Of a DNA stretch of 64,000 nucleotides, positions 13,918 through 55,673 are shown in pieces; position 1 is the stretch's first letter; the number at the start of each line of letters is the position of its first letter. Location: NCBI GenBank assembly GCA_001001485.1, contig LCKO01000001.1, positions 9,381-73,380 of the forward strand, written 5' to 3'. The position numbers and the translations under genes were made by a program. Under the pieces are notes generated by a model that saw only the letters and a program-made list of their open reading frames with translations, was not told the origin of the DNA and made no database searches. Source of the stretch: Candidatus Collierbacteria bacterium GW2011_GWB2_45_17. GTDB taxonomy: Bacteria; Patescibacteriota; Microgenomatia; UBA1400; MFAQ01.

Positions 13918-16051
13918 CAACCAAGAATCTGTGAATCTAGTTAACCTATTTGGCAATAAATCAAAGCTCCCAGAGCCGGAGTATTTTCTGGCTATCGAAA
14001 TTCACGAATCGCTCATCAAAACCGCCCTCTGGGAAGTTTTAGAAGGCCAACCTGAAGTGGTGAATGTCGGTTCATACGAATCCTGGGCCGATGAAGAGTC
14101 TCTTATCAACGGTGTTGATTCCTCTCTGGATCAGGCTATCAAAGTCATCAAAGGTCAACCCAAGAGAGTTGTTTTTGGTCTACCCGCTTCCTGGATGGAA
14201 GATGAAAAAATCCATTCTACCAAGACTAAACTAGTCACTCGTCTTTGCAAGGAGTTGGGGCTAGAACCCATTGGGGCGGTCACCACCAATCGGGCCATTG
14301 CCCACTTCCTCAAAAAAAGAGAAGGCATGCCCCCCACAGTCATTCTCTTGGAAGTCTATACCAGCAAGGTGGCCGTTTCCTACGTTTATCTTGGAGCCGT
14401 CAATAAAACGGAAGAGGTGGCTAGATCCGGAGATCTGGCTCACGACGTTGAGGAAGGACTTACCAGAATGGATCTTAATAACTATCCCGCTCGTTTCATC
14501 CTGACGAACGGTAACGGCTTGGAAGAAGAGTCGCAACAGATTACGGCTTTTCCTTGGACAGATAGGCTTCCCTTTAAACATATTCCGAAAGTAGAAATAC
14601 TTCCAATAGATTTTTCCATCAAAGCCATTGCCCTTACCGGGGGCATCGAAGCCGTCCAGTCGATTGGTTTCGAAATTAAAGAAGCGGTTGAAGAATCTAA
14701 TTTGGTGGTTCCTGAAAAAACACCTTCGTCAATGGAAGAGCTGGGTTTTTCCTACGAAGAAACCGCTCCTCCTCCCTCCATTTCATTGGCAGAACCGGTA
14801 GAACCCTCTGAAGAAGACCTAGAACCAAAATATGCCTTCTCTGGAGATGAGATCGGCTCGTCACCCCAGAAAAAATTTCACTTTAAAATTGCCCTACCCT
14901 CACTACCTAAAATAAATCTTCCCCACCCTCCTCGTCTGAGTTATCTATTATTCCTGGTCATCCCCGCCATCTTGTTTCTGGGGCTAATCGCTTACTTGTT
15001 TTTGGGCCAGGTCGAGATAGCTATTCACTTCAATCCTCAAAAAGTAAACAGGCAGTTGGGGATCGCTATCGCCGAGACTCTGCAGGAAAGTATACCGACC
15101 TTAATTGCTACCAAGAAAACTTTTTCCGGCTCCGCTCAAGAGTCAATCTCCACTACCGGAACGGCCACGGTCGGCGACAAGGCTACCGGCACCATTACCA
15201 TTGGCAACAAGTCCAGCGCCCCCCTTATCCTCAAGGCCGGGTCCACTGTCAGTAACGACACCGGAAAGTATTCATATATTTTACAAACCGCCGTTACTAT
15301 CGCCTCTGCCAGCGCTGACTCTCTGGACACGATTTCCGGAAAGGCAACCGGTGTCCAGGTCACTGCGACCAAAATTGGCGCCGAACACAATCTTCTCAAA
15401 GGAACCATTTTTAGCGTCGATAGTTTTTCCAAAGCCATTGCCGTAGCCGTTTCCGAATCTGACTTCGCCGGTGGAACTTCTCGCACCGTCAACGCTGTTT
15501 CCAAAGTCGACCAAGATAAATTGCTGGCTACCGGTACCGAAAAAATCAAGATCAAAGTTCAGTCCGACGCTCAAATGGAAAATCCCGAACTAAAAACCCT
15601 ACCTCTTTCCGACATTATTTTTACCAAGAAACAGTTTGACCACAACCTTTCCGAAGAAGCAACTACCGTCAGTCTCACACTGGAAGGCTCATTCGACGCT
15701 CTGGTTTACTCTCAAGGAAGTCTCAATGATTTAGCTACTAATGAATTAAAAAGCCAAATTCCGGCGGGCTCATATATCAAAAAGGAATCGACCACCGTTA
15801 GTTTGGAAAATCCCACTAAATCAGGTGGCATTTACCAATCAAAAGTCATGATTGAAGCCTCTCTTTATCCGGAAATAGACGAGCAAAAACTGGCGGAATT
15901 CATCAAAGGCAAGTCCGTTTCCGGCCTGCGTCATTTCTTTGAACCGATTCCTGGTTTTACCGGAGTCAATATCAAGATTTTCCCTTCCCTGCCGTTCATT
16001 ACCAAGATTCTCCCGCTCCGAAACATTAAGTTCGACCTCGTTAGCAACTGA
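13910..16051 (+). CDS. Membrane protein with an N-terminal actin-like ATPase (FtsA/PilM-family) domain, one TM helix and a large Thr/Ser-rich extracytoplasmic domain
   Basis: LAIEIHESLIKTALWEV start and RVVFGLPASW...LEPIGAVTTNRAIAHF resemble FtsA/PilM; TM at about residue 340. Confidence 0.4.
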   Translation: MFDNQESVNLVNLFGNKSKLPEPEYFLAIEIHESLIKTALWEVLEGQPEVVNVGSYESWADEESLINGVDSSLDQAIKVIKGQPKRVVFGLPASWMEDEKIHSTKTKLVTRLCKELGLEPIGAVTTNRAIAHFLKKREGMPPTVILLEVYTSKVAVSYVYLGAVNKTEEVARSGDLAHDVEEGLTRMDLNNYPARFILTNGNGLEEESQQITAFPWTDRLPFKHIPKVEILPIDFSIKAIALTGGIEAVQSIGFEIKEAVEESNLVVPEKTPSSMEELGFSYEETAPPPSISLAEPVEPSEEDLEPKYAFSGDEIGSSPQKKFHFKIALPSLPKINLPHPPRLSYLLFLVIPAILFLGLIAYLFLGQVEIAIHFNPQKVNRQLGIAIAETLQESIPTLIATKKTFSGSAQESISTTGTATVGDKATGTITIGNKSSAPLILKAGSTVSNDTGKYSYILQTAVTIASASADSLDTISGKATGVQVTATKIGAEHNLLKGTIFSVDSFSKAIAVAVSESDFAGGTSRTVNAVSKVDQDKLLATGTEKIKIKVQSDAQMENPELKTLPLSDIIFTKKQFDHNLSEEATTVSLTLEGSFDALVYSQGSLNDLATNELKSQIPAGSYIKKESTTVSLENPTKSGGIYQSKVMIEASLYPEIDEQKLAEFIKGKSVSGLRHFFEPIPGFTGVNIKIFPSLPFITKILPLRNIKFDLVSN

Positions 16052-16956: not shown

Positions 16957-17265
16957 TTGACAATGACAATACAATATAATATAATTACGCAAGTGAAACC
17001 AATTCAATGGGATTCAAACAAGAGTATTAAACTTAAAGAATCTCGAGGTGTTTCCTTTGAAGAGGTCTTCGAACTTGTTTTCAATCGCGAAGTGGTCGCG
17101 ATTGTTGATAATCCAAATCAAAAAAGATACCCGGGGCAGAAGATCATTCTGGTTATCTTCAATTCATATATGCACTGCATACCGTTTGTTGAGGATGAAG
17201 AAAAAATCTTTCTCAAAACAATTTTTGCTAGCCGTAAATATCATAAAAAATATTACAAAAAATGA
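16957..17265 (+). CDS. BrnT toxin (DUF497)
   Basis: IQWDSNKSIKLKESRGVSFEEVFELVF...IILVIFNSYMH...FLKTIFASRKYHKKY fits the BrnT pattern. Confidence 0.65.
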   Translation: MTMTIQYNIITQVKPIQWDSNKSIKLKESRGVSFEEVFELVFNREVVAIVDNPNQKRYPGQKIILVIFNSYMHCIPFVEDEEKIFLKTIFASRKYHKKYYKK

Positions 17266-17537
17266 AATATTACAAACTCACCAAAGAAGAAAAACAAATT
17301 GAAAAAGATCTTATAGCTGGTAAATATGTTCCAGTACCTAACATGGAACAAGAAATTGATCGCTTCCAAAAAATAGCCCAAGCTCAACTCAAAAATAAAA
17401 CTGTTAATTTCCGTATTGCAGGGTCAGAGCTAGAAATCTTTAAATCCAAATCTGGCAAAGTTGGCCTTCCTTATCAGTCTCTACTATCTCTCCTTATTTC
17501 TCAATACAATCGAGATAAATTTTCCATCAAGCTTTAA
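17262..17537 (+). CDS. BrnA antitoxin
   Basis: VNFRIAGSELEIFKSKSGKVGLPYQSLLSLLISQY; 4-nt overlap with BrnT. Confidence 0.65.
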   Translation: MKYYKLTKEEKQIEKDLIAGKYVPVPNMEQEIDRFQKIAQAQLKNKTVNFRIAGSELEIFKSKSGKVGLPYQSLLSLLISQYNRDKFSIKL

Positions 17538-28460: not shown

Positions 28461-28937
28461 ATGCGATCCAAAAAAACCCCACCTAAAAAAGTCCAATTTG
28501 ATCCGATTTACGGTAGTCCCTTAGTGGCCAAGTTAATCGCCTGTGTTATGGAAGACGGTCGAAAATCTGTCGCCGCCAAACAAGTTTACAAGGCTATTGA
28601 CATTGTCGCCGAGCAAACCAAGCAAGATGGAGTCGAGTATCTTCACACATCTCTGGACAACATCAAGCCGACTATCGAAGTCCGCTCCCGTCGTGTTGGA
28701 GGCGCTTCCTATCAAGTACCTACTCCTATCCGTCCGGAACGTCGTGACTCTCTGGCCATCCGCTGGCTCATCAATGCCGCCAAAGCTAGAGGCGCCAATC
28801 CTTACCGTACCCTTGCCGACAAACTCGCCGCCGAAATCGTGGAATCTCACGAAAATGCCGGCGCCGCCATCAAAAAGAAGCTCGACACTCACAAGCAAGC
28901 TGAGGCGAATAAGGCATTCGCTCACTTTAGATGGTAA
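28461..28937 (+). CDS. rpsG: 30S ribosomal protein S7
   Basis: S7 signature; 158 aa. Confidence 0.9.
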   Translation: MRSKKTPPKKVQFDPIYGSPLVAKLIACVMEDGRKSVAAKQVYKAIDIVAEQTKQDGVEYLHTSLDNIKPTIEVRSRRVGGASYQVPTPIRPERRDSLAIRWLINAAKARGANPYRTLADKLAAEIVESHENAGAAIKKKLDTHKQAEANKAFAHFRW

Positions 28938-29022
28938 TCCTATAGCATTATTACAGGACTACAATTTTTCATATTTGTGTTTCGGTATTGATTAGTTTTA
29001 ACTTTGGGTTTATTATGGATAT

Positions 29023-29871
29023 GTGATCACAAATTACTGCCCGATTTGTGGAGAATTGGTATTTAAAAAGCGAAAATTTTGTTCGGTTAAATGTAAGTCT
29101 GAAAGTCAAAATCAAAAGATTGAGTTAGAATGCACTGGTTGCGGTAACCATTTCAGGATATTGCCATATTTACAAAGGAAATCTAATTACTGCTCCGTCT
29201 CTTGCTATCACGACTCCACTAGGAAAAAAGAAATTAAAAATTGTCCGGTTTGCAGGAAGAATTTTTCAGTTATGGCGTGTTTAGTAAAGAAAGGTTTTGG
29301 AATTTATTGTTCTCAGAAATGTCGTTATAAAATTCACAGGAAGACTCAAGTTTGTTATCGATGCGGAAAGGAGTTTACTAGGGCATTATCATTATCTATT
29401 AAATATACAAAGTCATTTTGCAGTAAAAAGTGTTGCGACGACTCAACAAGGGAATATGTTTCGATATCGTGCCGCAATTGTCAGAAAATGATCTCAATTC
29501 CAAGAAGCACAATTAATCGAGGTAAGGGAGGATTCTGCTCCTGGTACTGTTATATCCACTATAAAGGCGAAACATCAATCGAAAAGATTGTGAGAATCCG
29601 ACTAAAAAAGGCCAAAATACCATTTGAACAAGAAGTTAAAATCGGTAAATACCATTCAGATTTTATGATCCAAAACACCAACATTCTGATTGAATGTGAT
29701 GGTGATTACTGGCACGGATTACCTTCAGCAATTGCCAAAGATAAGGTTCGAGATTTGATATTACGGACAAAAGGGTATGAAGTGCTTCGATTTACCGAGA
29801 CCGAGATAAAAAAGACAAAAGGAAACTGTGTTATTAATCAATTATCACAAAGGACAGACGTTAAGCAATGA
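29023..29871 (+). CDS. Zinc-ribbon-repeat protein with a C-terminal DUF559 (Vsr-like / restriction-endonuclease-fold) nuclease domain
   Basis: Five repeats of CxxC...x10-15...(F/Y)CSxxC, then IVRIRLKKAKIPFEQEV...SDFMIQNTNILIECDGDYWHG...DKVRDLILRTKGYEVLRFTETEI (DUF559 pattern). Confidence 0.55.
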   Translation: MITNYCPICGELVFKKRKFCSVKCKSESQNQKIELECTGCGNHFRILPYLQRKSNYCSVSCYHDSTRKKEIKNCPVCRKNFSVMACLVKKGFGIYCSQKCRYKIHRKTQVCYRCGKEFTRALSLSIKYTKSFCSKKCCDDSTREYVSISCRNCQKMISIPRSTINRGKGGFCSWYCYIHYKGETSIEKIVRIRLKKAKIPFEQEVKIGKYHSDFMIQNTNILIECDGDYWHGLPSAIAKDKVRDLILRTKGYEVLRFTETEIKKTKGNCVINQLSQRTDVKQ

Positions 29872-30811
29872 ATTCCCTCTCCAAAAAATACTGGGTCAAA
29901 CAAAAGCGGTATTCACTTTCCCGTTTAAATGGTTTCACCATTTTCTTTTGTTTCTGAGTCAGTTTTTCAAAATCTTTTTCGGTCAAGTGGGCCAGTATCA
30001 GGACATCACTTCGTCTCAGTTCTATACCCGTCTCTTTCTTTATTTGCTCTAGTATCTCTATCTGTACCGGCGCGTATTTTTGATAAACATAATCGGCGGT
30101 GAAAGTACTAAATACTTTATCGGCGATAATTAAGGACAAAATATTCTTAAACCACTTGGTGCCATAAAGAGTCTTTACCGGCTCCCGGGTGAAGGTAAAT
30201 CCAACTCGATAGTAAAACAATCCAAAAGGTTTGCTCATCGAGGTTAATACCGCCACGATATTTGGATGGGTATAGTCGAATTTATGTCTCTTGGTCAAAC
30301 CTAAATATGCCAAATCCACAATTACTTTATGTCCCAGATCCGCAATTTGATTAATTAAAGTGTCCACCAAAATATTTCCATCTCTACCGGATGGATTTGA
30401 GATAAACCAATACCCCGGTTTCAATTTCATTATCGTTTCGAAATCCTCCGGTATTTCTTGTACTTTTAGGCCAAGGCCTACGGCGCATTCCCGATAACCC
30501 TCATACTCTCCCTCCAGAGTATAAATTGGTGACTCCGGATGGTCTTTTTTGATTCTCGAAAGCAGGTGATATATTCCCTCACTCGAGCCACCGGTGGGGT
30601 AGCGGTATTCAAAGCTTTCCAAACCCTGAACGTCTTTTTTATAGAAATTAATCATCTTCTCAATGATTGGTTTCTCGTAGTCATCGAGTCCCGGCTTAAT
30701 CGATTTCAAAAATTCTCCATGTGGGAACTCTGCTGTAATCTCCGAAATCAGTTTCCTAATTTCCGGAAAGTAGTAAGAATAAACGGCTCGAATCGCTTTT
30801 AATTTCTTCAT
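29861..30811 (-). CDS. Class I/II PLP-dependent aminotransferase-fold enzyme (HisC/CobD-like, short)
   Basis: ISNPSGRDGNILV (NPxNPTG-like) and SMSKPFGLFYYRVGF (PLP-lysine motif). The probable start is the internal Met giving a 4-nt ATGA overlap with the upstream radical SAM gene; the ORF track extends to 30838. Confidence 0.55.
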   Translation of the reverse strand: MKKLKAIRAVYSYYFPEIRKLISEITAEFPHGEFLKSIKPGLDDYEKPIIEKMINFYKKDVQGLESFEYRYPTGGSSEGIYHLLSRIKKDHPESPIYTLEGEYEGYRECAVGLGLKVQEIPEDFETIMKLKPGYWFISNPSGRDGNILVDTLINQIADLGHKVIVDLAYLGLTKRHKFDYTHPNIVAVLTSMSKPFGLFYYRVGFTFTREPVKTLYGTKWFKNILSLIIADKVFSTFTADYVYQKYAPVQIEILEQIKKETGIELRRSDVLILAHLTEKDFEKLTQKQKKMVKPFKRESEYRFCLTQYFLEREFIA

Positions 30812-31683
30812 AGAATAATTGCCCCTTTGTATTGCCAATCAAATCGAATGTGTCCGTCGGGGAAGAAGATCATCTGTCGAATGTCATCCGTTCCGGGTTT
30901 TATCGTTAGAGCATCTGTCAAACAAACATTTTGTCCGGCGACATCATAGATTCTTGAGTTGTGTTCGTAAGAAAGAAGTAATCTCCCTTCCTTTTCCAGC
31001 CAGTCATTTATGTCCGCAATTTTCTTAGGAGTTAGCATCATCTTCACCGTATCTGTTTTATATTTCTCACTTTCCGAATTTTCCGGCGCAGCCACCGGTC
31101 TCAGAGACACTTGCTCCACTCCCCACTTGTTAGCCATCTCCACCATTTTTTTGGCCTCTTTGGGAGTGTCGATATGATCTTTGATCAGGACTACCGAAAA
31201 TCTTACGGAGTAGCCAATTTTATGCAGTTTGGCGATTATCTTTCCCAAATCCGGATATATTTTTTTACCGGGCACATAATTGGCTCTATTTTTCTCCGGA
31301 TCATAGTGCACCACCGATATCGAGATAATGGACAATCCAAGTTCAAACCACTCTTTTAAATATTTCTCATAACTTTTTTCTTGTTCGGAAAACAAAATAG
31401 CATTTGTCTGTAGTTCCAGAATAGGGAAGTCATATTTCTGAAGGTGTTTCAAATATTCGGTCAGCTGATCGGGGTATAAAGTCGGCTCACCCTTGCCGGT
31501 AAGCAGTACTGTCGTAATGTTATTTATCTGGGCAATCCTACAAGCTTTGTGAAAGTTGTGCCAGTTTATCAAGGTGGGTTTGGTGCCAATTCCCCTTATT
31601 CCCGTCATTTTCGAAACACAAAAGGGACAACTGGCATTACAAATGGCATTCCCCGACACTACCGTAAAAGTCTGTATCTTCAT
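30808..31683 (-). CDS. Radical SAM enzyme
   Basis: CNASCPFC (CxxxCxxC) near the N-terminus, TVLLTGKGEPTLYP glycine-rich SAM motif; 291 aa, no SPASM extension. Confidence 0.65.
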   Translation of the reverse strand: MKIQTFTVVSGNAICNASCPFCVSKMTGIRGIGTKPTLINWHNFHKACRIAQINNITTVLLTGKGEPTLYPDQLTEYLKHLQKYDFPILELQTNAILFSEQEKSYEKYLKEWFELGLSIISISVVHYDPEKNRANYVPGKKIYPDLGKIIAKLHKIGYSVRFSVVLIKDHIDTPKEAKKMVEMANKWGVEQVSLRPVAAPENSESEKYKTDTVKMMLTPKKIADINDWLEKEGRLLLSYEHNSRIYDVAGQNVCLTDALTIKPGTDDIRQMIFFPDGHIRFDWQYKGAIIL

Positions 31684-31801
31684 CTTAGTGTATATATTAC
31701 ACTAATAAAGAAGAATTGTCAAATATATCCAATTTAGCCACTATATACCTAGTGGAGTATAATCACCTTAGTACATTTCCAAACTCTTACGGAGGTAAAT
31801 C

Positions 31802-32233
31802 ATGTTTGAATGGTTATTTGGTTATAAAATTGATCCTCAAACCACGGTTGAGTGTTGGTTCCTTGAGTCCTATTCCATTACAGAAGAAAGTGCCAAGGGA
31901 AATCGTACTTTGGCCTACACCACCACTTGGAAAGAATACCAGTACAAGAGCCTTATCCATCCGAAGAACAAATTCGGTCCGAAAGATACCTTAGTGGTCA
32001 TAGGTCTTAACGTCAATCTAACCTCAGATTATAATTTTTTCACAAAGGAAGATTTCGAAAACCGAGCCAAGAATGTGCCAATCAGGAACGAAGAGGAGAG
32101 AGCTGCCTGGATCGATCGCATGCTTGAAACTCTTCCTTCAAAAAAAGAAAGTTTGGACAAATTAATTACGAAAATTGAGTCTTTGCGGGAAGGACTTTCC
32201 ACACTCGTCGATGAGCTACATTCACTTTCCTAG
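31802..32233 (+). CDS. Hypothetical protein with a canonical SD (GGAGG)
   Basis: 143 aa; SD 7 nt upstream of the ATG; its leader is duplicated upstream of the MttB gene. Confidence 0.4.
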   Translation: MFEWLFGYKIDPQTTVECWFLESYSITEESAKGNRTLAYTTTWKEYQYKSLIHPKNKFGPKDTLVVIGLNVNLTSDYNFFTKEDFENRAKNVPIRNEEERAAWIDRMLETLPSKKESLDKLITKIESLREGLSTLVDELHSLS

Positions 32234-32243
32234 AAGATAATTT

Positions 32244-32272
32244 AAAACCCCGATCAATTTTCGGGGTTTTTT
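32244..32272 (+). terminator. Intrinsic terminator AAAACCCCGATCAATTTTCGGGGTTTTTT
   Basis: GC stem then T-tract directly after the 32233 stop. Confidence 0.6.
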
Positions 32273-32338
32273 GTGCCTAATCATAAAGCGTATAATCACG
32301 CCAGTACATTTCCAATTTATTCTTCCAAAGGAGGCTCT

Positions 32339-33796
32339 ATGAAGCCAAAACTGACCTTGCTCGATGATGAATTGATTGCACGCGTCACTGACGAAGCTTT
32401 TCAATTATTGATGAGTCCGGGAATCAAAGTCCAAAATGTCGAAGCCCGTGAGCTACTTCGCTCCGCCGGAGCCGAAGTCGACGAGACCACTCTGGTTGCC
32501 CGGATTCCGAAATCTCTGGTCTTCACATCCCTCAAAACCGTGCCTCGTCATTTTCATCTTTATGATTATCAAGGCAACCAAAAAGTTCACTACGGCGGCG
32601 ACTCGGTTCACTTCGATCCAGGCTCCTCAGGCACCAATATTTTAGACACGGTGACTTTAGAGCATCGGCCAGCGCAAACTCAAGATCTTCTTCGGGTTAT
32701 CAAAGTGGTCGAAGGTCTTTCCGAGTACGACGCTCAGTCCACGGCTATTGTTTGTAGCGATGTGCCGAAAGAGATCCAAGATCTCTATCGCTTATATCTG
32801 GTTTTACTTTTCTCCGGGAAACCCATCGTCACCGGAGCCTTCTCCAATGAGAACGTCGAGCACATGATCGATATACTGGCCATCATTCCCGGTAGCCGCG
32901 AAAATCTGCGGCGTTTCCCCCGTGCCATATTCGATGTTTGCCCGTCGCCTCCACTCATTTGGTCCAATTTTGGCTCAGGCAATCTTATTGCTCTGGCGCG
33001 TGCCGGCGTTCCGGCCGAAATGGTTTCTATGCCCCTTGCTGGTGTGGCCGCCCCCGTGACCCTCATTGGCTCCGTCACTCAGCACGCGGCCGAGTGCCTC
33101 AGTGGGATCGTCATTCACCAATTAGCCGAAGCCGGCTCTCCCATTGTTTGGGGAGGTGCTCCGGCCATCTTCGACATGCGCAAAGGTGGCACTCCCATGG
33201 GTGCGATCGAGACCGCTATGATCGATAGCTCATATACCCAAGTCGGTAAATCCTTGGGACTTCCCACCCACGCCTATTTAGGCGGTTCCGATTCTAAGTT
33301 GGTCGACGGTCAAGCCGGCTTCGAAAGTGGCATGTCCATTCTTGTGGGCGCCCTCAGCGGTATCAATATGATCTCCGGTGCAGGTATGATCGACTCGCTT
33401 CTTTGTATGAGTCCGGAAAAACTGGTTATCGATGCCGAGTGCATTGCCATGGCTCGTCGAATGCTGAGGGGAATCGACACTCCGACCGAGACTCTAGCCT
33501 CAGGCTTTTATGAAGGTATAGACTTCAAAGGAAACTTTCTCAAGCAGAGAATTACCTCTGACCTATTCCGAAAGGAACAGCATCTCCCCAGCTCGGTAGT
33601 AGATCGGGATTCAGTTCGCGGCTGGAAAGCTTCAGGCAGTCTGGATACTTTTGCCCGAGCCAAGCTCGAGGTTGATAGACTTGTTGCCTCTTATCATCGT
33701 CCACAGCTAGACCCTTCTCAGGAAAAAGCCATTCGCGATCTTGTTGCCTCCTTCGCCCGCGAGGCCGGTATGCCCGCTCTCCCCCCTCTAGACTAA
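32339..33796 (+). CDS. MttB-superfamily (trimethylamine / glycine-betaine:corrinoid) methyltransferase, non-Pyl form
   Basis: Collinear similarity to MttB: AECLSGIVIHQL, GGAPAIFDMRKGGTPMG, LVIDAECIAMARRMLRGIDTPTETLA. The gene is visibly more GC-rich than its neighbours. SD AAAGGAGG upstream of the Met at 32339; the ORF-track ORF starts at 32273. Confidence 0.75.
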   Translation: MKPKLTLLDDELIARVTDEAFQLLMSPGIKVQNVEARELLRSAGAEVDETTLVARIPKSLVFTSLKTVPRHFHLYDYQGNQKVHYGGDSVHFDPGSSGTNILDTVTLEHRPAQTQDLLRVIKVVEGLSEYDAQSTAIVCSDVPKEIQDLYRLYLVLLFSGKPIVTGAFSNENVEHMIDILAIIPGSRENLRRFPRAIFDVCPSPPLIWSNFGSGNLIALARAGVPAEMVSMPLAGVAAPVTLIGSVTQHAAECLSGIVIHQLAEAGSPIVWGGAPAIFDMRKGGTPMGAIETAMIDSSYTQVGKSLGLPTHAYLGGSDSKLVDGQAGFESGMSILVGALSGINMISGAGMIDSLLCMSPEKLVIDAECIAMARRMLRGIDTPTETLASGFYEGIDFKGNFLKQRITSDLFRKEQHLPSSVVDRDSVRGWKASGSLDTFARAKLEVDRLVASYHRPQLDPSQEKAIRDLVASFAREAGMPALPPLD

Positions 33797-33839
33797 ATAC
33801 TTGCTAAACTACAAACAAATACCTTAAAAAAGGAGAAAA

Positions 33840-34328
33840 ATGTCTAAGTACTACGACATTGTAGTTATCAAAAGTTTCTCTATGGTTGCAGATGAATCGA
33901 CGGATGAAATTTTCAGAATGAACTTCGCTAAAGATGTCAGATCAAAACGCCTCGTTATAACTCATGCTCATCAATTAATAATTTTTAGCGTAGAGGCTAA
34001 AAGAATTGATCTCAATGCTGTCAAACGATTTGAAAATTTCCTCAGATCAAACGGTTTCACCAAGCTTTTTTCGGCAGTATACTCAGATAAAATGTCTGAT
34101 CTAGACGCCCGCTTCTTTACGATCAGATTGCATTCCAAGAATTTTTCCGATATGAAAGATCTGCTAATTTCCAAAATCGAAAAAGCCATCGGTGGAAAAC
34201 TCAAGGTTTACCACGACGAAATATACTATTTTCATTTGACCAAGTCCCAAATAAAGTCCAGACGTTTGGTTAGGCTAATAGACGATCTAGTCTTCTCTCC
34301 CGCAATCGAAATAGTCATCTGTATCTAA
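33840..34328 (+). CDS. Hypothetical protein (SD AGGAG upstream)
   Basis: 162 aa ORF with an SD. Confidence 0.4.
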   Translation: MSKYYDIVVIKSFSMVADESTDEIFRMNFAKDVRSKRLVITHAHQLIIFSVEAKRIDLNAVKRFENFLRSNGFTKLFSAVYSDKMSDLDARFFTIRLHSKNFSDMKDLLISKIEKAIGGKLKVYHDEIYYFHLTKSQIKSRRLVRLIDDLVFSPAIEIVICI

Positions 34329-34354
34329 CACTCCTCACAAGGGGGTGTTTTTTT
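34328..34354 (+). terminator. Intrinsic terminator ACACTCCTCACAAGGGGGTGTTTTTTT
   Basis: 7-bp stem with one G-U pair, plus T-tract. Confidence 0.45.
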
Positions 34355-34497
34355 GGCACAATAAAGTCTAGCTATTTGCCAGACTCCTTCTTGAAAAACT
34401 TCTTCACTCTCTGGTGGGCGCCTTTTGGGGCACGTTCGTAGGGGCGGGGTTTCCCCGTCCAACAACAACCCCAAAGAAAATTTGCTAACATAAATTC

Positions 34498-34827
34498 ATG
34501 TCCTCTGTCGATTTTTACCTCGACCATCGCAACAATAGTCCTGTCAGTGACTTTTTAGACAAAAACAAAGAGGTCAAAGTCAAAGCTTTAATTATCATCA
34601 AAAACATCATCGAGTTTGGCCTTTCCACCGCCATTCCCCACATCAAGAAACTCTCGGGTCTTCCTCTCTGGGAAATTCGTATCTTAGGCAAAAGCAACGC
34701 TCGCATTCTTTATGTCCACAAGGTTAAGAATCAAATAATTCTCCTCCACGCTTTCAAAAAGAAAACTAACAAAACTCCCACCAAAGAAACAAACATCGCT
34801 CTCAATCGCCTCAAAGATATCACTTGA
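34498..34827 (+). CDS. HigB-like toxin (Gp49-like/DUF891), second copy
   Basis: LWEIRILGKSNARILYVHKVKNQIILLHAFKKKTNKTPTKE. Confidence 0.65.
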   Translation: MSSVDFYLDHRNNSPVSDFLDKNKEVKVKALIIIKNIIEFGLSTAIPHIKKLSGLPLWEIRILGKSNARILYVHKVKNQIILLHAFKKKTNKTPTKETNIALNRLKDIT

Positions 34828-34860
34828 CATCTATATCCTATACGATATACAATTAGAACC

Positions 34861-35139
34861 ATGAACCTCCTCTCTTTTGACCAATATTTATCTGATAGCC
34901 TCAAAGATCCAGCATTCAAGAAACTCTGGGAAAAAGCCGACCCTGAATACCAGCTCTCCAGGCAAATAATCAAGGCCAGACTAGAGGCAAAAATGTCTCA
35001 AAAAGACCTCGCCAAAAAGGCTCACACCACTCAAGCCATCATTTCTCGTCTCGAAAACTCCAGCTTCAACCCCTCCCTCTCATTTCTCAAAAAAATCGCC
35101 ATTGCTCTCAACACCCCTCTCCATATCTCTCTTCCCTAA
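34861..35139 (+). CDS. HTH XRE-family antitoxin (HigA-like), second copy
   Basis: MSQKDLAKKAHTTQAIISRLE HTH; paralog of 5777-6067. Confidence 0.65.
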   Translation: MNLLSFDQYLSDSLKDPAFKKLWEKADPEYQLSRQIIKARLEAKMSQKDLAKKAHTTQAIISRLENSSFNPSLSFLKKIAIALNTPLHISLP

Positions 35140-35155
35140 CCTGTAAATCTCTCCC

Positions 35156-35180
35156 GCTCACCTCATTGGTGGGCTTTTTG
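35156..35180 (+). terminator. Terminator-like hairpin GCTCACCTCATTGGTGGGCTTTTT
   Basis: 7-bp stem plus T-tract between the antitoxin and fusA. Confidence 0.35.
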
Positions 35181-35196
35181 TGGTAAAATTAGCCTC

Positions 35197-37317
35197 GTGA
35201 ATATTGTCGGAAAAAAAGTTCCCCTTGATCGTGTTAGAAATACGGGTATTATCGCGCACATCGATGCCGGCAAGACCACCACTACCGAACGTATTCTTTT
35301 TTATACCGGTAAGTCATATAAAATTGGCGATATCGATGATGGTAATACCCAGATGGACTGGATGGACCAAGAAAAAGAGCGGGGTATAACGATCGTCTCC
35401 GCGGCCACCACCGCTTTTTGGACCCCTGTTTTGCCCCATGCCCGCTTCAAAGAAGAGCATCGCTTCAACATCATTGATACTCCGGGCCACGTCGATTTTA
35501 CGGCTGAGGTCGAGCGTTCTCTTCGTGTTCTCGATGGAGGCGTTATTGTTCTGGATGCCGGCTCCGGTGTCCAGTCTCAAACCGAAACCGTTTGGCGTCA
35601 AGCCGACAAATACCACGTTCCTCGCATTGCTTTTATCAACAAAATGGACGTTCTGGGAGCCGATTACATGGCTACCATCAAGGATGTGCATGAGAAACTC
35701 GGTGCCAAAACGGCCGTCATGGCTCTGCCTCTAGGTGTCGAAAACACTTTCCGCGGTATTGTTCTCCTTCTCGAGAGGGAAACTATTGTCTGGAAAGGCG
35801 ACGAAACCGGTGCTCTGTACGAAGTTACCGAAGGCTTCCCTGAGGAGATGAAAGACGAGTGTGAGCTCGAACGTGCCAAATTGATCGAATCCATTGTCGA
35901 ATTTGATGAAGTCCTCATGGGCGAGTATCTTGATGGTCAAGAACCGAGCCTGGACGCCCTCAAGACCGCTCTCCGGACAGCCACCTGTGCCAATCAGATC
36001 GTTCCTGTCTTTCCCGGTTCGTCCCTTCGCAACAAAGGCGTCCAGCCTCTTCTTGACGCCGTGGTTGATTTTTTACCTTCCCCACTAGACAAGCCCACCA
36101 TTACCGGTACCAATCCCGAAACCAACGAAGAGGAAACTCGTCTAGCCGACCCTGCCGAACCTTTCTCAGCCCTAGCTTTCAAGATTCAGGCCGATCCTCA
36201 TGTTGGTAAGCTGACTTATCTTAGAATATACTCCGGCAAAATTACCTCAGGTTCATTTGTTTATAATGCCTCCAAGCGCGAGCGCGAGAGACTTGGTCGT
36301 TTGATGCTCATGCACGCCAACACTCGTGAAGAAGTTAGCGAAGCCGGTGCCGGAGAAATTGTCGGCGTCGTCGGTCTCAAAGCCACCAAAACCGGCGACA
36401 CTCTTTGCGACGAATACAAGCCCTTGGTTCTGGAATCCATCAATTTTCCTGATCCGGTCATTTCTCTAGCCATTGAGCCCAAAACCAAAGCCGATCAAGA
36501 AAAGCTGGATGTGGCTCTGAGTCGTCTAGCCGAGGAAGATCCCACTTTCCGCATCAAAACCGATCACGAAACCGGCCAAACCGTTATCTCCGGCATGGGT
36601 GAACTTCATCTGGAAATATTGGTTGACCGTCTTCGCCGTGAGTTTAAGGTCGAGGCCTCTACCGGTGCTCCTCAAGTGGCTTACCGCGAAACTATCACCA
36701 AACCAGCTCGAGGAGAAGGTAAGTACATCCGCCAATCAGGTGGTCGAGGCCAATATGGTCACTGTATTCTCGTCATTACTCCCAAAACCAGAGGAGAGGG
36801 TTTTACTTTTACCAACAAGATCGTTGGCGGCACCATTCCCAAGGAATTTATCTCCCCAATCGAAAAAGGTGTTCGTGAAGCTCTCGACAACGGTGTTATT
36901 TCCGGTTTCCCTTTGGTTGATCTTGACGTCGCTGTTATAGACGGTTCCTTTCATGAGGTGGACTCTTCCGAAATGTCTTTCAAGATTGCCGGTTCCATGG
37001 CTCTTCAGGACGCCGTCAAAGCCGCCGGGCCGGTCATCCTCGAACCGATTATGAAGGTAGAAGTTACCACTCCCGAAGGTAACATGGGTGACATTATCGG
37101 GGACCTTTCCTCTCGCCGGGCCCAAATCGCCGGTTCCGCCCAACGGGGCAACGCTCGAGTTATCACCGCCACCGTGCCTCTTTCGGAGCTTTCCGCCTAC
37201 GCCACCGCCATTCGTTCTTTAACCGCCGGCCGAGCCAACTACTACATGGAACCCAGTCATTATCAGGAGCTTCCAAACAGTTTGGCGGCCAAGTTATTGA
37301 AAAACCCGACAAACTAG
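35197..37317 (+). CDS. fusA: Elongation factor G
   Basis: GTG start; [10 protein letters not shown]-domain motifs; 706 aa. Confidence 0.9.
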
Positions 37318-47483: not shown

Positions 47484-47566
47484 CGTCACCCCACTCTTGA
47501 CTTTAGACCTATAATTTGATATAGTTTCAGTATAGGTTCACACTAAAACTAACGTTGGAGGTAAAG

Positions 47567-47905
47567 ATGTACACTGTTGATGATTTTGCAAAGGATATGC
47601 ATGCGGATGTATGGGCGATTCGAGGCAGGCTCTTGGAAATAACTTCAAAATGTCTCCAATGGGGTGAATTAAGCGTCAAACACTTAAAGCTTAAGGATGC
47701 CAAAGTAGTTGGGAACGTGCTCTTTCTTCGCTTTGTTGCTAGCAACGATTATTTGGCGATTGATCCAGTTGAGAAAAGAATCTACCAGGCCAATTACGAT
47801 CTCAAGGAAGTTCCTGGAAAGCACGAGATAGATCTATCTATCATCAATAATATTTCCAAAGAGCTTAAAACTCGGTATTCAAAGGCTAGCCCTGTCAGCT
47901 TTTAA
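47567..47905 (+). CDS. Hypothetical protein A of the rplO|secY island (SD GGAGG)
   Basis: 113 aa from the Met at 47567 (the ORF-track ORF starts at 47555); SD then ATG; followed by a strong terminator. Confidence 0.45.
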   Translation: MYTVDDFAKDMHADVWAIRGRLLEITSKCLQWGELSVKHLKLKDAKVVGNVLFLRFVASNDYLAIDPVEKRIYQANYDLKEVPGKHEIDLSIINNISKELKTRYSKASPVSF

Positions 47906-47916
47906 ATATATGCAGA

Positions 47917-47946
47917 CAAAACCATTCCCCCCGGGAGTGGTTTTTT
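47917..47946 (+). terminator. Intrinsic terminator AAAACCATTCCCCCCGGGAGTGGTTTTTTG followed by a -10-like CTATAAT
   Basis: Long GC stem plus T-tract. Confidence 0.6.
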
Positions 47947-47988
47947 GCTATAATATCCCAGAACATTAAAATTCCAGGAGGTATACCC

Positions 47989-48417
47989 GTGTTTAACATT
48001 CGTTTTCAGAATCTACCCAAGCTTGTCTTTAACCCGCGCCTTTTCGCTTTTGAACCTGCCCATGTGGACACGCTCCGCCAAGTTATCGGCACACTCTTAA
48101 GATGCCCGCCGGAACTACCCCAACTCTTAATTGAAAGATCGGAGTGCTTTATTTTGGAAGACAAAAGCCTCGTAGCGGCCCCCGTACGGATTATCGTCGA
48201 GTGGTACTCTGAACGCCCTAGTTCCGACACTATTTTTGGCCTGGCTCTGGCCTTTTACAACTTTCTAAAAGCTTATGGCTTTGAAGCAGGTCTGACAGTC
48301 ATCTTTTCCGGTATTTCCGAAGGTGACGCCTTCATTGAGAAAGATGGTCGTTTGATTTCCGCTCCCCGTCTCCCCACTCCACATTTTAACTATCGTGGCT
48401 TTCAAGGCAAACGCTAA
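47989..48417 (+). CDS. Hypothetical protein B (GTG start, SD GGAGG)
   Basis: 142 aa ORF, no recognizable family. Confidence 0.45.
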   Translation: MFNIRFQNLPKLVFNPRLFAFEPAHVDTLRQVIGTLLRCPPELPQLLIERSECFILEDKSLVAAPVRIIVEWYSERPSSDTIFGLALAFYNFLKAYGFEAGLTVIFSGISEGDAFIEKDGRLISAPRLPTPHFNYRGFQGKR

Positions 48418-48426
48418 AGGAGATTT

Positions 48427-48801
48427 ATGAAATCTTTGCTCACCTTAAACAATCTCGGCTACGCCAGAGACGTTTCCGGGGGACCAGAATGTAATTGCGA
48501 CCTCGGGGTATTCATTTTCGCCTCCGAACAAAGCCTCAAAATACGCACCTATTTCTATCTGAAGAATCAGTCGGAAAAACAATTGGTCATCGGTAAGTTG
48601 GTGGATGGTGTCAATGATAGTGCGGATCTAGACCATGGCAAGCTAACCTTCAGGTTCGAAAGTAACGGACACGTTGAACTCTCCTGGGAAAACCAAGAAG
48701 GCCATCAAACTGCCACCTTCAATGAAATTGCTTTGGTCCAGCTTATGGAAGTCGAATGGGTCCGAACCCTCGTCAAAAACCGCACCGCCAGCTATCTCTA
48801 A
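48427..48801 (+). CDS. Hypothetical protein C (SD AGGAG)
   Basis: 124 aa ORF, no recognizable family. Confidence 0.45.
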   Translation: MKSLLTLNNLGYARDVSGGPECNCDLGVFIFASEQSLKIRTYFYLKNQSEKQLVIGKLVDGVNDSADLDHGKLTFRFESNGHVELSWENQEGHQTATFNEIALVQLMEVEWVRTLVKNRTASYL

Positions 48802-48807
48802 TCTTTA

Positions 48808-48833
48808 CGCCACCCTTCACTGGGTGGTTTTTG
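48808..48833 (+). terminator. Intrinsic terminator GCCACCCTTCACTGGGTGGTTTTTG followed by a -10-like TTACAAT
   Basis: GC stem plus T-tract. Confidence 0.55.
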
Positions 48834-48872
48834 TTACAATACTCGGGAACATTCAAATTTCAAGGAGGTCAA

Positions 48873-49469
48873 GTGGATAAAAATTCAATCCTTCATCAGA
48901 TCAACATCGATTTTTTTATACTTTCAGCCACTGTCGTTCAAGATCTCAAAATGATCGCTCTTTGCCGATCCCCTTACTACAAGCACCCTATTGGTTGTCC
49001 AAACTGGGATCACAAAGACGGTTGTCCGCCCCATACCAAACGTTTTTTATCAGTCTATGAGCCGACAGTTTACATCGCCATTGCTCGCTTGGATTTTGGT
49101 AAGTATCTGAAACTTAAAGAAAAAATTCATCCGGGGTGGACAGAGAAAGCTTTAAAAAACCCTCGTCACTGGCAAGGTCACCTAAGAGCCGCTCTCAGAA
49201 ATTTTCTAACTCCGGACAAAATCCACACCGGCTTCGAAATAGTTAAAAATGCGGAAGCCATGGGCATCAATTTGTTCGAAACCTGTGCCAATGCCGGCTT
49301 CGTTCTCGAAAGAGATCCGAAAAATTATGTTTGCCACCTTAATCTCTTGGCTAAACCCACCACCCCTCACCGGGTGGTTTTTTGTTTCGTGGCACCGTGT
49401 CACAGTGTTACCGTGCCACACACCTTATCATTCTCGACCGACTATAATTTAACAAATGGATCTTATTAG
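48873..49469 (+). CDS. Hypothetical Cys-rich protein D (GTG start after AGGAGG); its 3' end reads through a terminator hairpin
   Basis: CRSPYYKHPIGCPNWDHKDGCPP Cys/Pro motif. The upstream part of the ORF-track ORF 48756-49469 was rejected because it spans the preceding terminator and promoter. Confidence 0.4.
   Translation: MDKNSILHQINIDFFILSATVVQDLKMIALCRSPYYKHPIGCPNWDHKDGCPPHTKRFLSVYEPTVYIAIARLDFGKYLKLKEKIHPGWTEKALKNPRHWQGHLRAALRNFLTPDKIHTGFEIVKNAEAMGINLFETCANAGFVLERDPKNYVCHLNLLAKPTTPHRVVFCFVAPCHSVTVPHTLSFSTDYNLTNGSY
49353..49384 (+). terminator. Intrinsic terminator AAACCCACCACCCCTCACCGGGTGGTTTTTTG; followed by a second hairpin GTGGCACCG...CGTGCCAC and a -10-like TATAAT about 9 nt before the ATG at 49456
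   Basis: GC stem plus T-tract. Confidence 0.55.
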
Positions 49470-50343
49470 AAAAATTATTATGGATCTCTGCAAATTCTCT
49501 CCTCGTCAAGGAGAGAACGAGGTCAGAACTGCCCAGTATTTGGAGAACTTTTTGACTCAGAGAAAAATCAACTTCACTTCTCAGTATTTCAAAACCGAAA
49601 TCCCCAATGTTATTCACGCGGAACTCTATCTAGATGGCCAAAGGATACCATGTCTCGGAAAATCATTCGTCGGTGGCATGATTACTTCCAAGGATCAAAT
49701 CGATTTTAGTCCGTATTCAGACTATATCGAAACTATCACTTTTCGGCCCATTCCCACAGTTGCCATTTCCAGGACAAACGCTAAATTCCTAGAGAAAGCC
49801 AACCACGTCCGCGGGGAAGTTGTAGTTGAGAAATATTTATTCCAATCAAGAAACATATTAGTTGGCGATACCATTAATCCCAAAAAAATTATTTTTGCTC
49901 ACTACGATGGTCTTGGTGGGGGAGCAGTGGACAACGCTGGCAGTGTCGCCATTTGTCTCGAACTCTTAATTGAAAACCCTGAACTGTTATCCGAGAACTT
50001 ATTTGTTTTTGCTGGCAACGAAGAACTCAGTTACGACTCTGGAGACTACTGGGGCAAGGGCTACCGTGAATTTGAAAATGAATATCTCACCCTACTAAAA
50101 TCCGCTCTGGAGATTGTGGTTGTCGATGGCGTCGGGGTCAGCCCTCCTGTTATTGTTTCCGAAGACCGAGAAGATGTCTTTCCAATCAATCATTTCGACG
50201 AGTTCTCATCAAAAATTACCTGGCTTTCCAGCATCCAATCAGAAGTCCTCAAATGCTATCACTGTTTGGAAGATACACTTGACAAGTTAAATTTCGGCCA
50301 TTTCGAAGAAACCAGAAAAATGTTAGAAAAGATGTTAGGATAA
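49456..50343 (+). CDS. M28-family zinc peptidase-like protein
   Basis: IIFAHYDGLGGGAVDNAGSVAICLELL resembles the M28/M20 metal-binding segment; N-terminal region SPRQGENEVRTAQYLENFL as in aminopeptidases. Confidence 0.5.
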   Translation: MDLIRKIIMDLCKFSPRQGENEVRTAQYLENFLTQRKINFTSQYFKTEIPNVIHAELYLDGQRIPCLGKSFVGGMITSKDQIDFSPYSDYIETITFRPIPTVAISRTNAKFLEKANHVRGEVVVEKYLFQSRNILVGDTINPKKIIFAHYDGLGGGAVDNAGSVAICLELLIENPELLSENLFVFAGNEELSYDSGDYWGKGYREFENEYLTLLKSALEIVVVDGVGVSPPVIVSEDREDVFPINHFDEFSSKITWLSSIQSEVLKCYHCLEDTLDKLNFGHFEETRKMLEKMLG

Positions 50344-50346
50344 ATT

Positions 50347-50544
50347 ATGACCAATAAATTTAAAAACCTGAAGCCGTATATAGTCAGGACATCAGAAAAT
50401 AATGCATATACTATCCCGAAACTGGTAAGGGGGGAAAAACGCGATAAAATGATTTCCGAAATGGTTGAACTAATCAAAGAAAATAAGAAAATTATTGACG
50501 ATCTCAAATCATCCTCGAAACCAGATGGGTATCTTTTTGGATGA
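50347..50544 (+). CDS. AbrB/MazE-type (swapped-hairpin) antitoxin-like protein
   Basis: 65 aa; IVRTSENNAYTIPKLVRGE resembles SpoVT/AbrB DNA-binding antitoxins; immediately precedes and overlaps a PIN gene. Confidence 0.45.
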   Translation: MTNKFKNLKPYIVRTSENNAYTIPKLVRGEKRDKMISEMVELIKENKKIIDDLKSSSKPDGYLFG

Positions 50545-51094
50545 AAATTTCAAAGAATCAGTAAGAGGTAAATATTGCCTGTTGGATAATGATTTTCTTG
50601 GTGCCTTATTCAATGACAATTCTCTATTCCTTGCGATGAAGGACCTTTTAAATGACTATCCCTTTGTATACGATAATCTGACAAGTTTTGAATTCTTAAG
50701 AGATATCTATGTTCCTAGTCAGATAGTACTCAGGGAAAAATTTTTATCGAAGGATTTATTGTTTCCTCTCTCTGATCATCAAGAAATATATACAAAGACT
50801 CAAACCAATGCTCTCATCCTTTCCAAGATTTATGCCCAAAATAATTCAAAGTTAAATCAGAAGGGTTCAGCAAGTTTTACCGATATTTTTTTAGCTTCTA
50901 GATTAATGTCTTTGGGGAGTAAATACTTACTTATTACCGGAAATAAAAAAGACTTTCCCAATTATATCTTTGATACAAAAGGCATCATTACAAACGAGGA
51001 GGCAAGCGGAGCTCTAAGAAGCTACTCACTTCTATCATTTGATCCGGATAAATTTGATAAGTGTTTCAAGGAATTAGGCGGGGTGGGCAATTAA
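50525..51094 (+). CDS. PIN-domain nuclease-like toxin (VapC-like)
   Basis: CLLDNDFLGALFND near the N-terminus and LLITGNKKDF near the C-terminus fit the PIN acidic motifs. The ORF-track ORF starts at 50495; Met at 50525 chosen. Confidence 0.45.
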   Translation: MGIFLDENFKESVRGKYCLLDNDFLGALFNDNSLFLAMKDLLNDYPFVYDNLTSFEFLRDIYVPSQIVLREKFLSKDLLFPLSDHQEIYTKTQTNALILSKIYAQNNSKLNQKGSASFTDIFLASRLMSLGSKYLLITGNKKDFPNYIFDTKGIITNEEASGALRSYSLLSFDPDKFDKCFKELGGVGN

Positions 51095-55105: not shown

Positions 55106-55402
55106 GTGAAATTTGACTGGAATCCAGACAAAAACAAGCTTTTAAAATTAACCAGAGGGATTGATTTTCAATCAATTGTGCGGGCCATAAAGAAAAAGAA
55201 GGTCTTGTTAGATACGCCACACTTTGATCAAATCAGGTATCCAAAACAAAGAATATTAATTATTTCTATCAAAAGTTACGCCTATATTGTCCCATATGTT
55301 CAAAATGGACCAACACGATTTTTAAAAACTATTTATCCAAGTCGCCGATATTATAAAAAATATTTAAAAAATGCCCAAAAAGCCAAAATTCGATCCCTTT
55401 AA
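55106..55402 (+). CDS. BrnT toxin (DUF497), second copy
   Basis: MKFDWNPDKNKLLKLTRGIDFQSIV...RILIISIKSYAY...FLKTIYPSRRYYKKY. Confidence 0.65.
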   Translation: MKFDWNPDKNKLLKLTRGIDFQSIVRAIKKKKVLLDTPHFDQIRYPKQRILIISIKSYAYIVPYVQNGPTRFLKTIYPSRRYYKKYLKNAQKAKIRSL

Positions 55403-55673
55403 AAACCTAGTTCTGGACGAGTACGAACAAGAATTGGAAGATAGTATCCCAGACGACATTGTATTAACTCCACCCTCACCAGCTAGGCTTGCTATACTCA
55501 AGAAAGCCGCCGAAAATACTCTCAGAGACTTAGAACTTCAAAAAAAGAGCAAAAACATCAATTTGAGAGTCACCGAGGCCACCTTTCGCAACCTAAAATC
55601 AAAGGCCACCAGGCTCGGTTTGCCATATCAAACTCTAGCCTCTAGTATTCTTCACCAATACTCCAGTAAATAG
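55371..55673 (+). CDS. BrnA antitoxin, second copy
   Basis: INLRVTEATFRNLKSKATRLGLPYQTLASSILHQY. Confidence 0.65.
   Translation: MPKKPKFDPFKNLVLDEYEQELEDSIPDDIVLTPPSPARLAILKKAAENTLRDLELQKKSKNINLRVTEATFRNLKSKATRLGLPYQTLASSILHQYSSK

Follow-up and report, generated by a model that had tools for sequence, protein, structure and literature searches.

A probably Chloroflexota-derived MttB-superfamily methyltransferase, retained as a solitary gene between rpsG and fusA in Candidatus Collierbacteria

The bacteria of the Candidate Phyla Radiation (CPR, or Patescibacteria) are thought to have almost no one-carbon or cofactor-dependent metabolism. What, then, is a gene for an MttB-type methyltransferase doing between the translation genes rpsG and fusA of Candidatus Collierbacteria bacterium GW2011_GWB2_45_17? 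The gene, mttB, lies at positions 32339–33796 of a 64,000-nucleotide stretch (contig LCKO01000001.1, positions 9,381–73,380), hereafter called the window. A sequence-only reading of the window had seen in it a gene newly gained by horizontal transfer from a donor of high GC. The analysis reported here points to a different history, in which mttB probably encodes an intact Chloroflexota-derived enzyme that arrived in one old transfer, has been kept by vertical descent, and would rely on a corrinoid partner encoded elsewhere in the genome or scavenged.

The gene is a plus-strand open reading frame (ORF) of 485 aa, ending in TAA and free of internal stops. A GTG at 32273 opens a longer frame, but the true start is placed at the ATG of 32339, because the orthologues begin at the same methionine; in an N-terminal alignment M1, P3, K4 and L5 are nearly invariant among them. 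Residues 3–471 match the Pfam family PF06253 (MTTB) over profile positions 29–494 of 500, with an E-value of 5.3e-85 and 285.7 bits against a cutoff of 25. The equivalog model for the pyrrolysine (Pyl) enzyme, TIGR02369, scores 348.1 bits, below its cutoff of 525. Among PDB sequences the best match is MttB of Methanosarcina barkeri (7xcl, 1.2e-57), followed by MtgB of Desulfitobacterium hafniense (9yce and 2qne, ∼1e-53). An AlphaFold model of the protein (predicted local distance difference test, pLDDT, 72.9; predicted template-modelling score, pTM, 0.77) is matched by Foldseek to 7xcl, 7xcn, 2qne and 9yce, with template-modelling (TM) scores of 0.74–0.77, the M. barkeri enzyme giving the best fold at 0.76, and E-values down to 3.5e-27. 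The model has the TIM-barrel fold and C-terminal dimerisation extension of the solved MttB and MtgB structures, with low confidence in the active-site loops and the 378–431 loop. The protein is thus a full-length MttB-superfamily methyltransferase of the non-pyrrolysine kind, and the family assignment made in the sequence-only reading is borne out.

The regions of pLDDT below 50 (residues 96–98, 233–239, 275–291, 314–356 and 378–431) are the most conserved active-site loops and the dimerisation loop. This low confidence likely reflects the low diversity of the alignment, in which all sequences are at least 69% identical, together with modelling as a monomer. Pocket residues were accordingly mapped by sequence alignment to 9yce and 7xcl, and not from the model. 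An identical protein is present in NCBI as 'MttB6' (KKT55962.1/KKT96159.1), and the exact MttB and elongation factor G (EF-G) sequences are deposited under Ca. Collierbacteria GW2011_GWB1_45_35 and GWB2_45_17 and Microgenomates GW2011_GWC1_44_23. The 90%-identity cluster holding the 485-aa MttB also lists Yersinia phage holin fragments of 31–56 aa, an apparent database or clustering oddity without bearing on the biology of the window.

Where did such a gene come from? Homologues at 63–73% identity are very numerous, and the named ones come, with few exceptions, from Anaerolineales or other Chloroflexota, where they are annotated as 'trimethylamine methyltransferase family protein' (for example P0073 in locus L084 and P0104 in L169) and align over their full length. 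The best identity outside the CPR is 73%. The genome search was kept to the best 80 of 475 relatives, and among these only three are of CPR type (L004, L010 and L014). A tree of 113 sequences was built by neighbour joining, with distant paralogues as the root. In 95 of 100 bootstraps it unites the 18 CPR-clade sequences in a single clade, which is nested at least three nodes deep among the Chloroflexota orthologues (94 of 100); these form its sister group and paraphyletic stem. This topology supports a single transfer of mttB from Chloroflexota to the CPR. The reverse, that the subfamily is native to the CPR and was passed to Chloroflexota, has nothing specific in its favour and would have to accommodate this nesting, the tandem paralogues and full partner set that Chloroflexota hold, and the three CPR-type loci among the best 80 of 475 genome hits; I regard it as highly improbable.

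The position of the gene carries a second part of the argument. It sits in a 6.2-kb variable accessory segment, or slot, whose features in the window are as follows, coordinates first.

28461–28937, plus strand: rpsG (ribosomal protein S7; Pfam annotation), left boundary of the slot
28938–35196, no strand: variable accessory segment, of which mttB is the sole component common to all six related genomes
29023–29871, plus strand: DUF559/MTES_1575 endonuclease-like protein with a Cys-rich N-terminal segment (Pfam annotation)
29861–30838, minus strand: aminotransferase class I/II-like protein, a weak annotation match; it shares an overlap with the radical SAM gene at that gene's end
30808–31683, minus strand: radical S-adenosylmethionine (SAM) protein of 291 aa by annotation, subfamily unspecific, divergent from mttB
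31735–31774, plus strand: ancestral radical SAM–mttB intergenic promoter/leader, now before ORF143, aligning with the intergenic regions of L082 and L085
31802–32233, plus strand: ORF143, 143 aa, no assigned function, a lineage-specific insertion absent in L082 and L085
32244–32270, no strand: GC-rich, terminator-like hairpin with flanking A/T runs (AAAACCCCG...CGGGGTTTT), between ORF143 and the mttB promoter/leader
32291–32310, plus strand: −10 box TATAAT with the leader element ATAATCACGCCAGTAC(ATTT), from alignment and pattern search
32327–32334, plus strand: Shine-Dalgarno sequence AAAGGAGG, 4 nt 5' of the ATG, its GGAG kept in six of six CPR loci
32339–33796, plus strand: mttB, 485 aa, non-pyrrolysine MttB-superfamily protein, pocket S96, H311, G316, S346 and L354
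33840–34328, plus strand: ORF of 162 aa, no assigned function, own Shine-Dalgarno sequence, absent from relatives
34327–34349: terminator-like hairpin after the 162-aa ORF
34498–34827, plus strand: Gp49/HigB-like toxin
34861–35139, plus strand: HTH_3 antitoxin, pairing with the Gp49/HigB-like toxin
35156–35174: terminator-like hairpin 3' of the toxin-antitoxin pair
35197–37317, plus strand: fusA (EF-G, by annotation), right boundary of the slot

The gene occupies this same slot in five further diverged genomes, which are listed here with their identities to the window.

L082/L083, metagenome contigs: MttB 81%, EF-G 94%
L085, metagenome contig: MttB 80%
L004, Patescibacteria metagenome-assembled genome (MAG) CALRDV01: MttB 72%, EF-G 92%
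L014, Ca. Collierbacteria GW2011_GWB1_44_6: MttB 72%, EF-G 92%
L010, labelled Pseudomonadales but clearly of the same lineage: MttB 71%, EF-G 92%

The cargo of the slot varies, with the radical SAM and aminotransferase-like pair in three genomes and DUF1361 and hypothetical proteins in the others, while mttB is constant. That pair, whose ORFs overlap by 31 nt when drawn from the first start codon and which has NCBIfam matches only far below threshold (MoaA, HisC, CobD), is found beside mttB in three genomes only, those of the window, L082/L083 and L085. The rpsG–fusA gap can be followed as an accessory-gene hot spot at 28938–35196 in the window, 8100–12880 in L004, 1–6400 in L010, 1–4950 in L014 and 7650–11600 in L082. 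The L010 contig (CAYGCQ010000016.1, 'uncultured Pseudomonadales bacterium') has a Collierbacteria-type synteny, mttB-...-fusA-tuf-rpsJ, at a GC of 0.43, and has probably been mis-binned in a public MAG.

A Chloroflexota gene on a CPR contig could in principle be an assembly chimera or binning contamination, as its nearest relatives outside the clade are Chloroflexota and one related contig, L010, is mislabelled. The same arrangement is, however, read in 24 independent contigs, so that it is not an assembly artefact, and the protein is indexed in 34 assembly-collection blocks. In six diverged genomes from different studies the gene always lies between rpsG and fusA, and its codons are host-like. 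This explanation is refuted, and I give it practically no weight.

How long has the gene been there? The CPR-clade proteins are 67–88% identical to one another, and their pairwise synonymous divergence (dS) runs from 1.3 to more than 4, that is, to saturation, with a ratio of nonsynonymous to synonymous divergence (dN/dS) of 0.05–0.14. MttB distances follow those of concatenated core proteins (r = 0.79) at two to three times the rate, and the grouping is broadly congruent. The 67% minimum identity, the saturated dS and the core-tracking distances mark the transfer as old, with vertical descent under strong purifying selection since. Of the 'recent horizontal acquisition' proposed from the letters alone, the horizontal part is upheld by the well-supported clade nested in Chloroflexota, and the recent part fails against the shared slot and the saturated dS.

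The proposal of a recent event had drawn on composition. The gene was described as GC-rich compared with its surroundings, which is correct for its immediate neighbours: mttB has a GC of 0.526, compared with 0.386 and 0.404 in the left and right flanking parts of the segment (0.39–0.40 for the segment without mttB) and 0.447 in the window. These neighbours, however, are accessory genes of unusually high AT content. Of the window's 75 genes, mttB comes third in GC (z = 1.58) and ninth in GC at third codon positions (GC3, 0.537; z = 1.06), and its GC is near that of fusA (0.511); for comparison, tuf has a GC of 0.495 and rplN of 0.547, and the gene for an AAA/Lon-lid-domain protein at 1045–2118 has 0.510. 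Host codon usage and the amino-acid composition of MttB together predict a GC of 0.501, leaving a residual of +0.025 (z = 1.0). The synonymous codon choice, expressed as a likelihood ratio in nats per codon, is +0.115 for mttB, +0.19 for fusA and +0.17 for tuf, against −0.15 for the AT-rich neighbours. The GC excess is mostly explained by amino-acid composition, and the codon choice is like that of the host core. Among the codons singled out earlier, GCC (28) and GGC (18) are the commonest, but GAC (13) is rarer than GAT (17). Because GC, GC3, corrected GC and codon choice are all core-like, composition gives no evidence of recent foreign origin; the per-gene check of GC and codon usage does not single out mttB as an outlier against host core genes, and composition was rejected as transfer evidence.

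A recent transfer from a donor of high GC, with the gene still standing out as an island of foreign composition, would account for the GC contrast with the neighbours and the window mean, for the mobile-type genes of the variable insert (the DUF559 endonuclease and the toxin-antitoxin pair) and for the higher GC of the nearest non-CPR relatives, the Chloroflexota. It is at odds with the modest deviations of GC, GC3 and residual (z of 1.6, 1.1 and 1.0) and the core-like codons, with one slot shared by six diverged genomes at 67–88% identity and saturated dS, and with a best non-CPR identity of only 73%. The 'high-GC donor' was also overstated: donor-type loci have a median GC of 0.54, the genes a GC3 of 0.66, and the range is wide. 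The CPR copies, at 0.478–0.543, lie below the donor medians (gene GC 0.561, GC3 0.657), which fits amelioration of a donor composition. I consider this alternative largely refuted and very unlikely.

The region upstream of mttB bears on whether the gene is merely carried along by its neighbours. The strong Shine-Dalgarno sequence reported earlier is indeed present, four nucleotides before the ATG. A consensus ATAAT-YMCSCCAGYWC-TTT, with the conserved leader letters ATAATCACSCCAGTWC, lies ∼30–45 nt 5' of the ATG and is common to all six lineages; the combined −10/leader pattern occurs once, at the same place, in each of 10 CPR loci and in none of 159 other loci. The leader element is therefore taken to be functional, since this non-coding sequence is conserved while the synonymous sites of the coding sequence are saturated. 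Hairpins analogous to that at 32244–32270 are found 5' of mttB in L004 and L014. In the window, ∼40 nt of the mttB promoter/leader are duplicated (GTATAATCAC..AGTACATTTCCAA; regions 31684–31801 and 32234–32338), with a second leader copy, ATAATCACCTTAGTAC, at 31759–31774 (two mismatches). The distal copy retains the ancestral radical SAM–mttB intergenic sequence, and in the proximal copy the terminator-like hairpin replaces the upstream part. The second copy before ORF143 therefore indicates that the insertion of ORF143 and the hairpin duplicated the mttB promoter/leader. Taken together, mttB appears to be an independent, maintained transcription unit, and not a passive passenger of the str operon. 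A hairpin that would sequester the Shine-Dalgarno sequence (CUUCC-AAA-GGAGG), seen by eye, was dropped, as it is not conserved in L004, L010 and L014.

Is the enzyme itself retained? In 87 Chloroflexota orthologues, 165 alignment columns are at least 97% identical; 144 of these are kept in at least 90% of the CPR sequences, and most of the other 21 are retained in the CPR majority. Only two substitutions are fixed in the CPR clade, L243I and A316G, both conservative, and site-wise entropy correlates between the CPR and Chloroflexota sets (rho = 0.67). Residues 378–436 align with the dimerisation loop of MttB, which provides the main corrinoid-protein contacts in the MttB–MttC crystal (PMC9842639); as in the M. 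barkeri enzyme this loop is present and conserved, and in the CPR sequences the constraint on it is no weaker than in the remainder of the protein. Alignments of this kind suggest neither decay nor new function in the CPR copy.

CPR genomes are reductive, and with partner genes missing nearby mttB could be seen as a pseudogene or as the eroding remnant of a cluster that was formerly complete, without present function. The selection analysis refutes this view: every lineage has an intact ORF, dN/dS lies at 0.05–0.14 with dS saturated, and the invariant residues, promoter/leader and Shine-Dalgarno sequence are all kept. The probability left to it is minimal.

The binding pocket was next compared with those of the characterised enzymes. 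In MtgB, which shares the superfamily, the fold and the lack of pyrrolysine (27% identity in the Foldseek alignment), glycine betaine is bound by Y97, R312, H348 and F356, as established by mutagenesis and crystallography (PMC13080624). These align with S96, H311, S346 and L354, and none of the four match. The S/H/S/L combination is identical in all 18 CPR and all 87 Chloroflexota sequences, save for a Gln at H311 in one of the latter. R312, which binds the substrate carboxylate, is conserved in all characterised acidic quaternary-amine members (PMC13080624); His311 aligns with it within a well-conserved block (GLPTHAY against GVPSRSG), and the present protein is thereby set apart from MtcB, MtpB, MtyB and MthB by their published conserved Arg. 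At the position of Pyl334 of the M. barkeri enzyme there is Gly316, encoded by GGT, with no in-frame UAG; this residue is Gly in 18 of 18 CPR sequences, as opposed to Ala in 82 of 87 donors. Gly110 and Tyr364, which activate pyrrolysine and are 100% conserved in Pyl-MttB (PMC9842639), correspond here to Ser96 and Ser346. The protein is therefore neither Pyl-MttB nor MtgB, and belongs to an uncharacterised subfamily that is abundant in Anaerolineales. As all four pocket positions are donor-like and none MtgB-like, no substrate is assigned; it may be a methylated amine-type compound, the same as that of the Chloroflexota orthologues, and not glycine betaine.

Characterised systems of this kind also need partners, and here the CPR loci and the Chloroflexota loci part ways. 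Of 79 Chloroflexota-type loci searched over 10 kb by a local hidden Markov model (HMM) scan, 68 have a corrinoid protein (B12-binding_2 plus B12-binding domains) on the same strand, within a few kb upstream of the orthologue, and 32 have a pterin-binding methyltransferase; short contigs make up many of those that lack a partner. A donor order of GntR-FCD regulator, corrinoid protein, two to four MTTB paralogues, peptidases (S9, M20, M19) and Pterin_bind is seen in L084, P0011 and L169, and in donor genomes the orthologue is one of two to eight MttB paralogues. Such clusters make up the classical three-component system of substrate methyltransferase, corrinoid protein and methylcorrinoid:tetrahydrofolate (THF) methyltransferase. 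In the Anaerolineales clusters at L084 6118–16956, L169 5321–14793 and the P0011 locus, one corrinoid protein stands beside two to four divergent MTTB paralogues (∼24% and ∼67% identical to the query type) and M20, S9 and M19 peptidases. This combination suggests an uncharacterised multi-substrate system for demethylating methylamines or peptide-derived compounds; the peptidases may, weakly, hint at methylated amino-acid or peptide-derived substrates.

In the window, in contrast to these donor clusters, the copy is solitary. No corrinoid- or pterin-binding protein is present in its 64 kb (local HMM scan of ORFs of at least 80 aa, and Pfam annotation), nor does Pfam annotation show a corrinoid protein or pterin-binding methyltransferase in the 10 kb beyond either end, ∼84 kb in total; the sequence-only reading, which saw no partner nearby, is confirmed over this range. 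The local HMM scan likewise found no corrinoid or pterin-binding partner beside mttB at any CPR locus. A metagenome scan for CPR contexts with a partner gave two extra loci of CPR synteny (L089 and L099), neither with one. In the window and four CPR loci, no cobalamin riboswitch or any other Rfam family reached the gathering score; the window scan at these thresholds reported not even a tRNA, and ARAGORN places a tRNA-Pro(GGG) at 62350–62422 on the minus strand. Two sets of candidates were examined and set aside. Proteins of 188–199 aa located 5' of mttB in L004 and L014 have the size of corrinoid proteins but are DUF1361 by Pfam and coiled-coil-like. The radical SAM and aminotransferase-like pair is absent in L004, L010 and L014, and is unlike the aminotransferase near the donor cluster.

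Partners located elsewhere have precedents. In Ruegeria pomeroyi and other aerobic marine bacteria with MtgBCD(E), PF06253 genes are present in several copies per genome, unlinked from their partners, and as many as seven depend on a single MtgC/MtgD at another place in the genome; this holds in streamlined B12 auxotrophs too (PMC12478193). The likeness to the present case is one of gene organisation; those genomes hold MtgC and MtgD, while none is found in the ∼84 kb here. MtgB has also been assayed in vitro through the methylation of free cob(I)alamin (PMC13080624). Unlinked or scavenged partners are therefore plausible.

The reading that I consider probable can then be laid out in steps. 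A single mttB copy, without its corrinoid protein or pterin-binding enzyme, would have entered the rpsG–fusA gap of a Collierbacteria ancestor once. There it would have gained or retained a promoter/leader and Shine-Dalgarno sequence of its own, and it has since been passed on vertically under strong purifying selection. The enzyme would bind the same methylated amine-type substrate as the Chloroflexota orthologues and pass a methyl group from it to the Co(I) of a corrinoid. This last step is proposed because the donor-type constraints are kept and because methyl transfer to Co(I) is the chemistry of all characterised family members. The carrier of the corrinoid would be a protein whose gene lies in another part of the genome, or the corrinoid would be scavenged.

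Several points weigh against this reading. Neither partner nor cobalamin riboswitch was found in the ∼84 kb or beside mttB in the six related genomes, so that the canonical three-component mechanism is left without a demonstrated partner in this organism. Cofactor biosynthesis is generally thought to be lacking in CPR bacteria. The residues by which the characterised members of the family are defined are all missing, the conserved active-site loops are modelled with low confidence, and the tree is by neighbour joining only.

The first of these points would be expected if the orphan state were real and functional, the enzyme working without a dedicated corrinoid protein and using free or host-derived corrinoid or a different methyl acceptor. 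A lone transferred gene would have been useful at once only if it needed no co-transferred partner, MttB-family enzymes have been assayed on free cob(I)alamin in vitro (PMC13080624), and Gly at the Pyl position distinguishes the CPR copies from most donors. Against this, the constraint is unaltered (144 of 165 invariant columns, rho = 0.67), the loop that contacts the corrinoid protein is not relaxed, and A316G is conservative. Moreover, the corrinoid cannot turn over without a second methyltransferase, and for other bacteria there is good documentation of partners encoded away from the methyltransferase (PMC12478193). On balance a true orphan seems unlikely, although it deserves to be kept in mind. 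More doubtful still is a fuller version, in which a CPR episymbiont has long kept this one Anaerolineales-derived module and may run it without its own corrinoid protein or methyl-corrinoid:THF methyltransferase. It would then depend on a host-derived corrinoid or corrinoid protein, or on a non-canonical acceptor feeding, for example, methionine/SAM regeneration, and the gene would be a true orphan among B12-type methyltransferases, at work in a minimal cell.

The rest of the window agrees with the metabolically minimal organism suggested by the sequence-only reading, which is a groundwater CPR bacterium of tiny genome, with identical MttB and EF-G deposited from Ca. Collierbacteria. It contains rpoB-rpoC-rpsL-rpsG, fusA-tuf and the S10, spc and alpha ribosomal operons, and the remainder is almost all information-processing genes. 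A second interruption of the ribosomal super-operon is located between rplO and secY (47555–51094), with five ORFs having no or weak Pfam matches (Peptidase_M28, E = 1e-4; DUF2284, E = 1e-3). Phage-type DNA-binding or nuclease proteins are encoded among core genes at 52461–53294, 6671–7498, 60511–61329 and 62480–63343; they comprise a KilA-N protein between secY and adk, two Bro-N proteins and an HNH_repeat protein just before recA. Small toxin-antitoxin-like pairs are found at 5484–6067, 34498–35139, 55371–55673 and 16957–17537, namely two Gp49/HTH_3 pairs, a CopG-like antitoxin and an overlapping pair of unannotated ∼100-aa ORFs. Directly 3' of alaS, a 713-aa ORF (13910–16051) has only a sub-threshold Baseplate_J-like match (E = 0.002).

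CPR genomes are well known to receive metabolic genes by transfer, and it is common for MttB homologues to be unlinked. A literature search on MttB in Collierbacteria, Patescibacteria, CPR or Anaerolineae returned nothing relevant; the deposited gene already carries an annotation, but none of the papers in the literature searched deals with it. The scans contain hundreds of Chloroflexota members of the S/H/S/L-pocket subfamily to which it belongs. In Collierbacteria, a lineage has kept a B12-type methyltransferase across several species, under strong purifying selection. This retention suggests that these bacteria use a methylated amine-type compound and a corrinoid, and bears on what they may take up from partners. 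The clean Anaerolineales donor signal also hints at which organisms Collierbacteria live with, and Anaerolineales may be a host or neighbour lineage of these bacteria.

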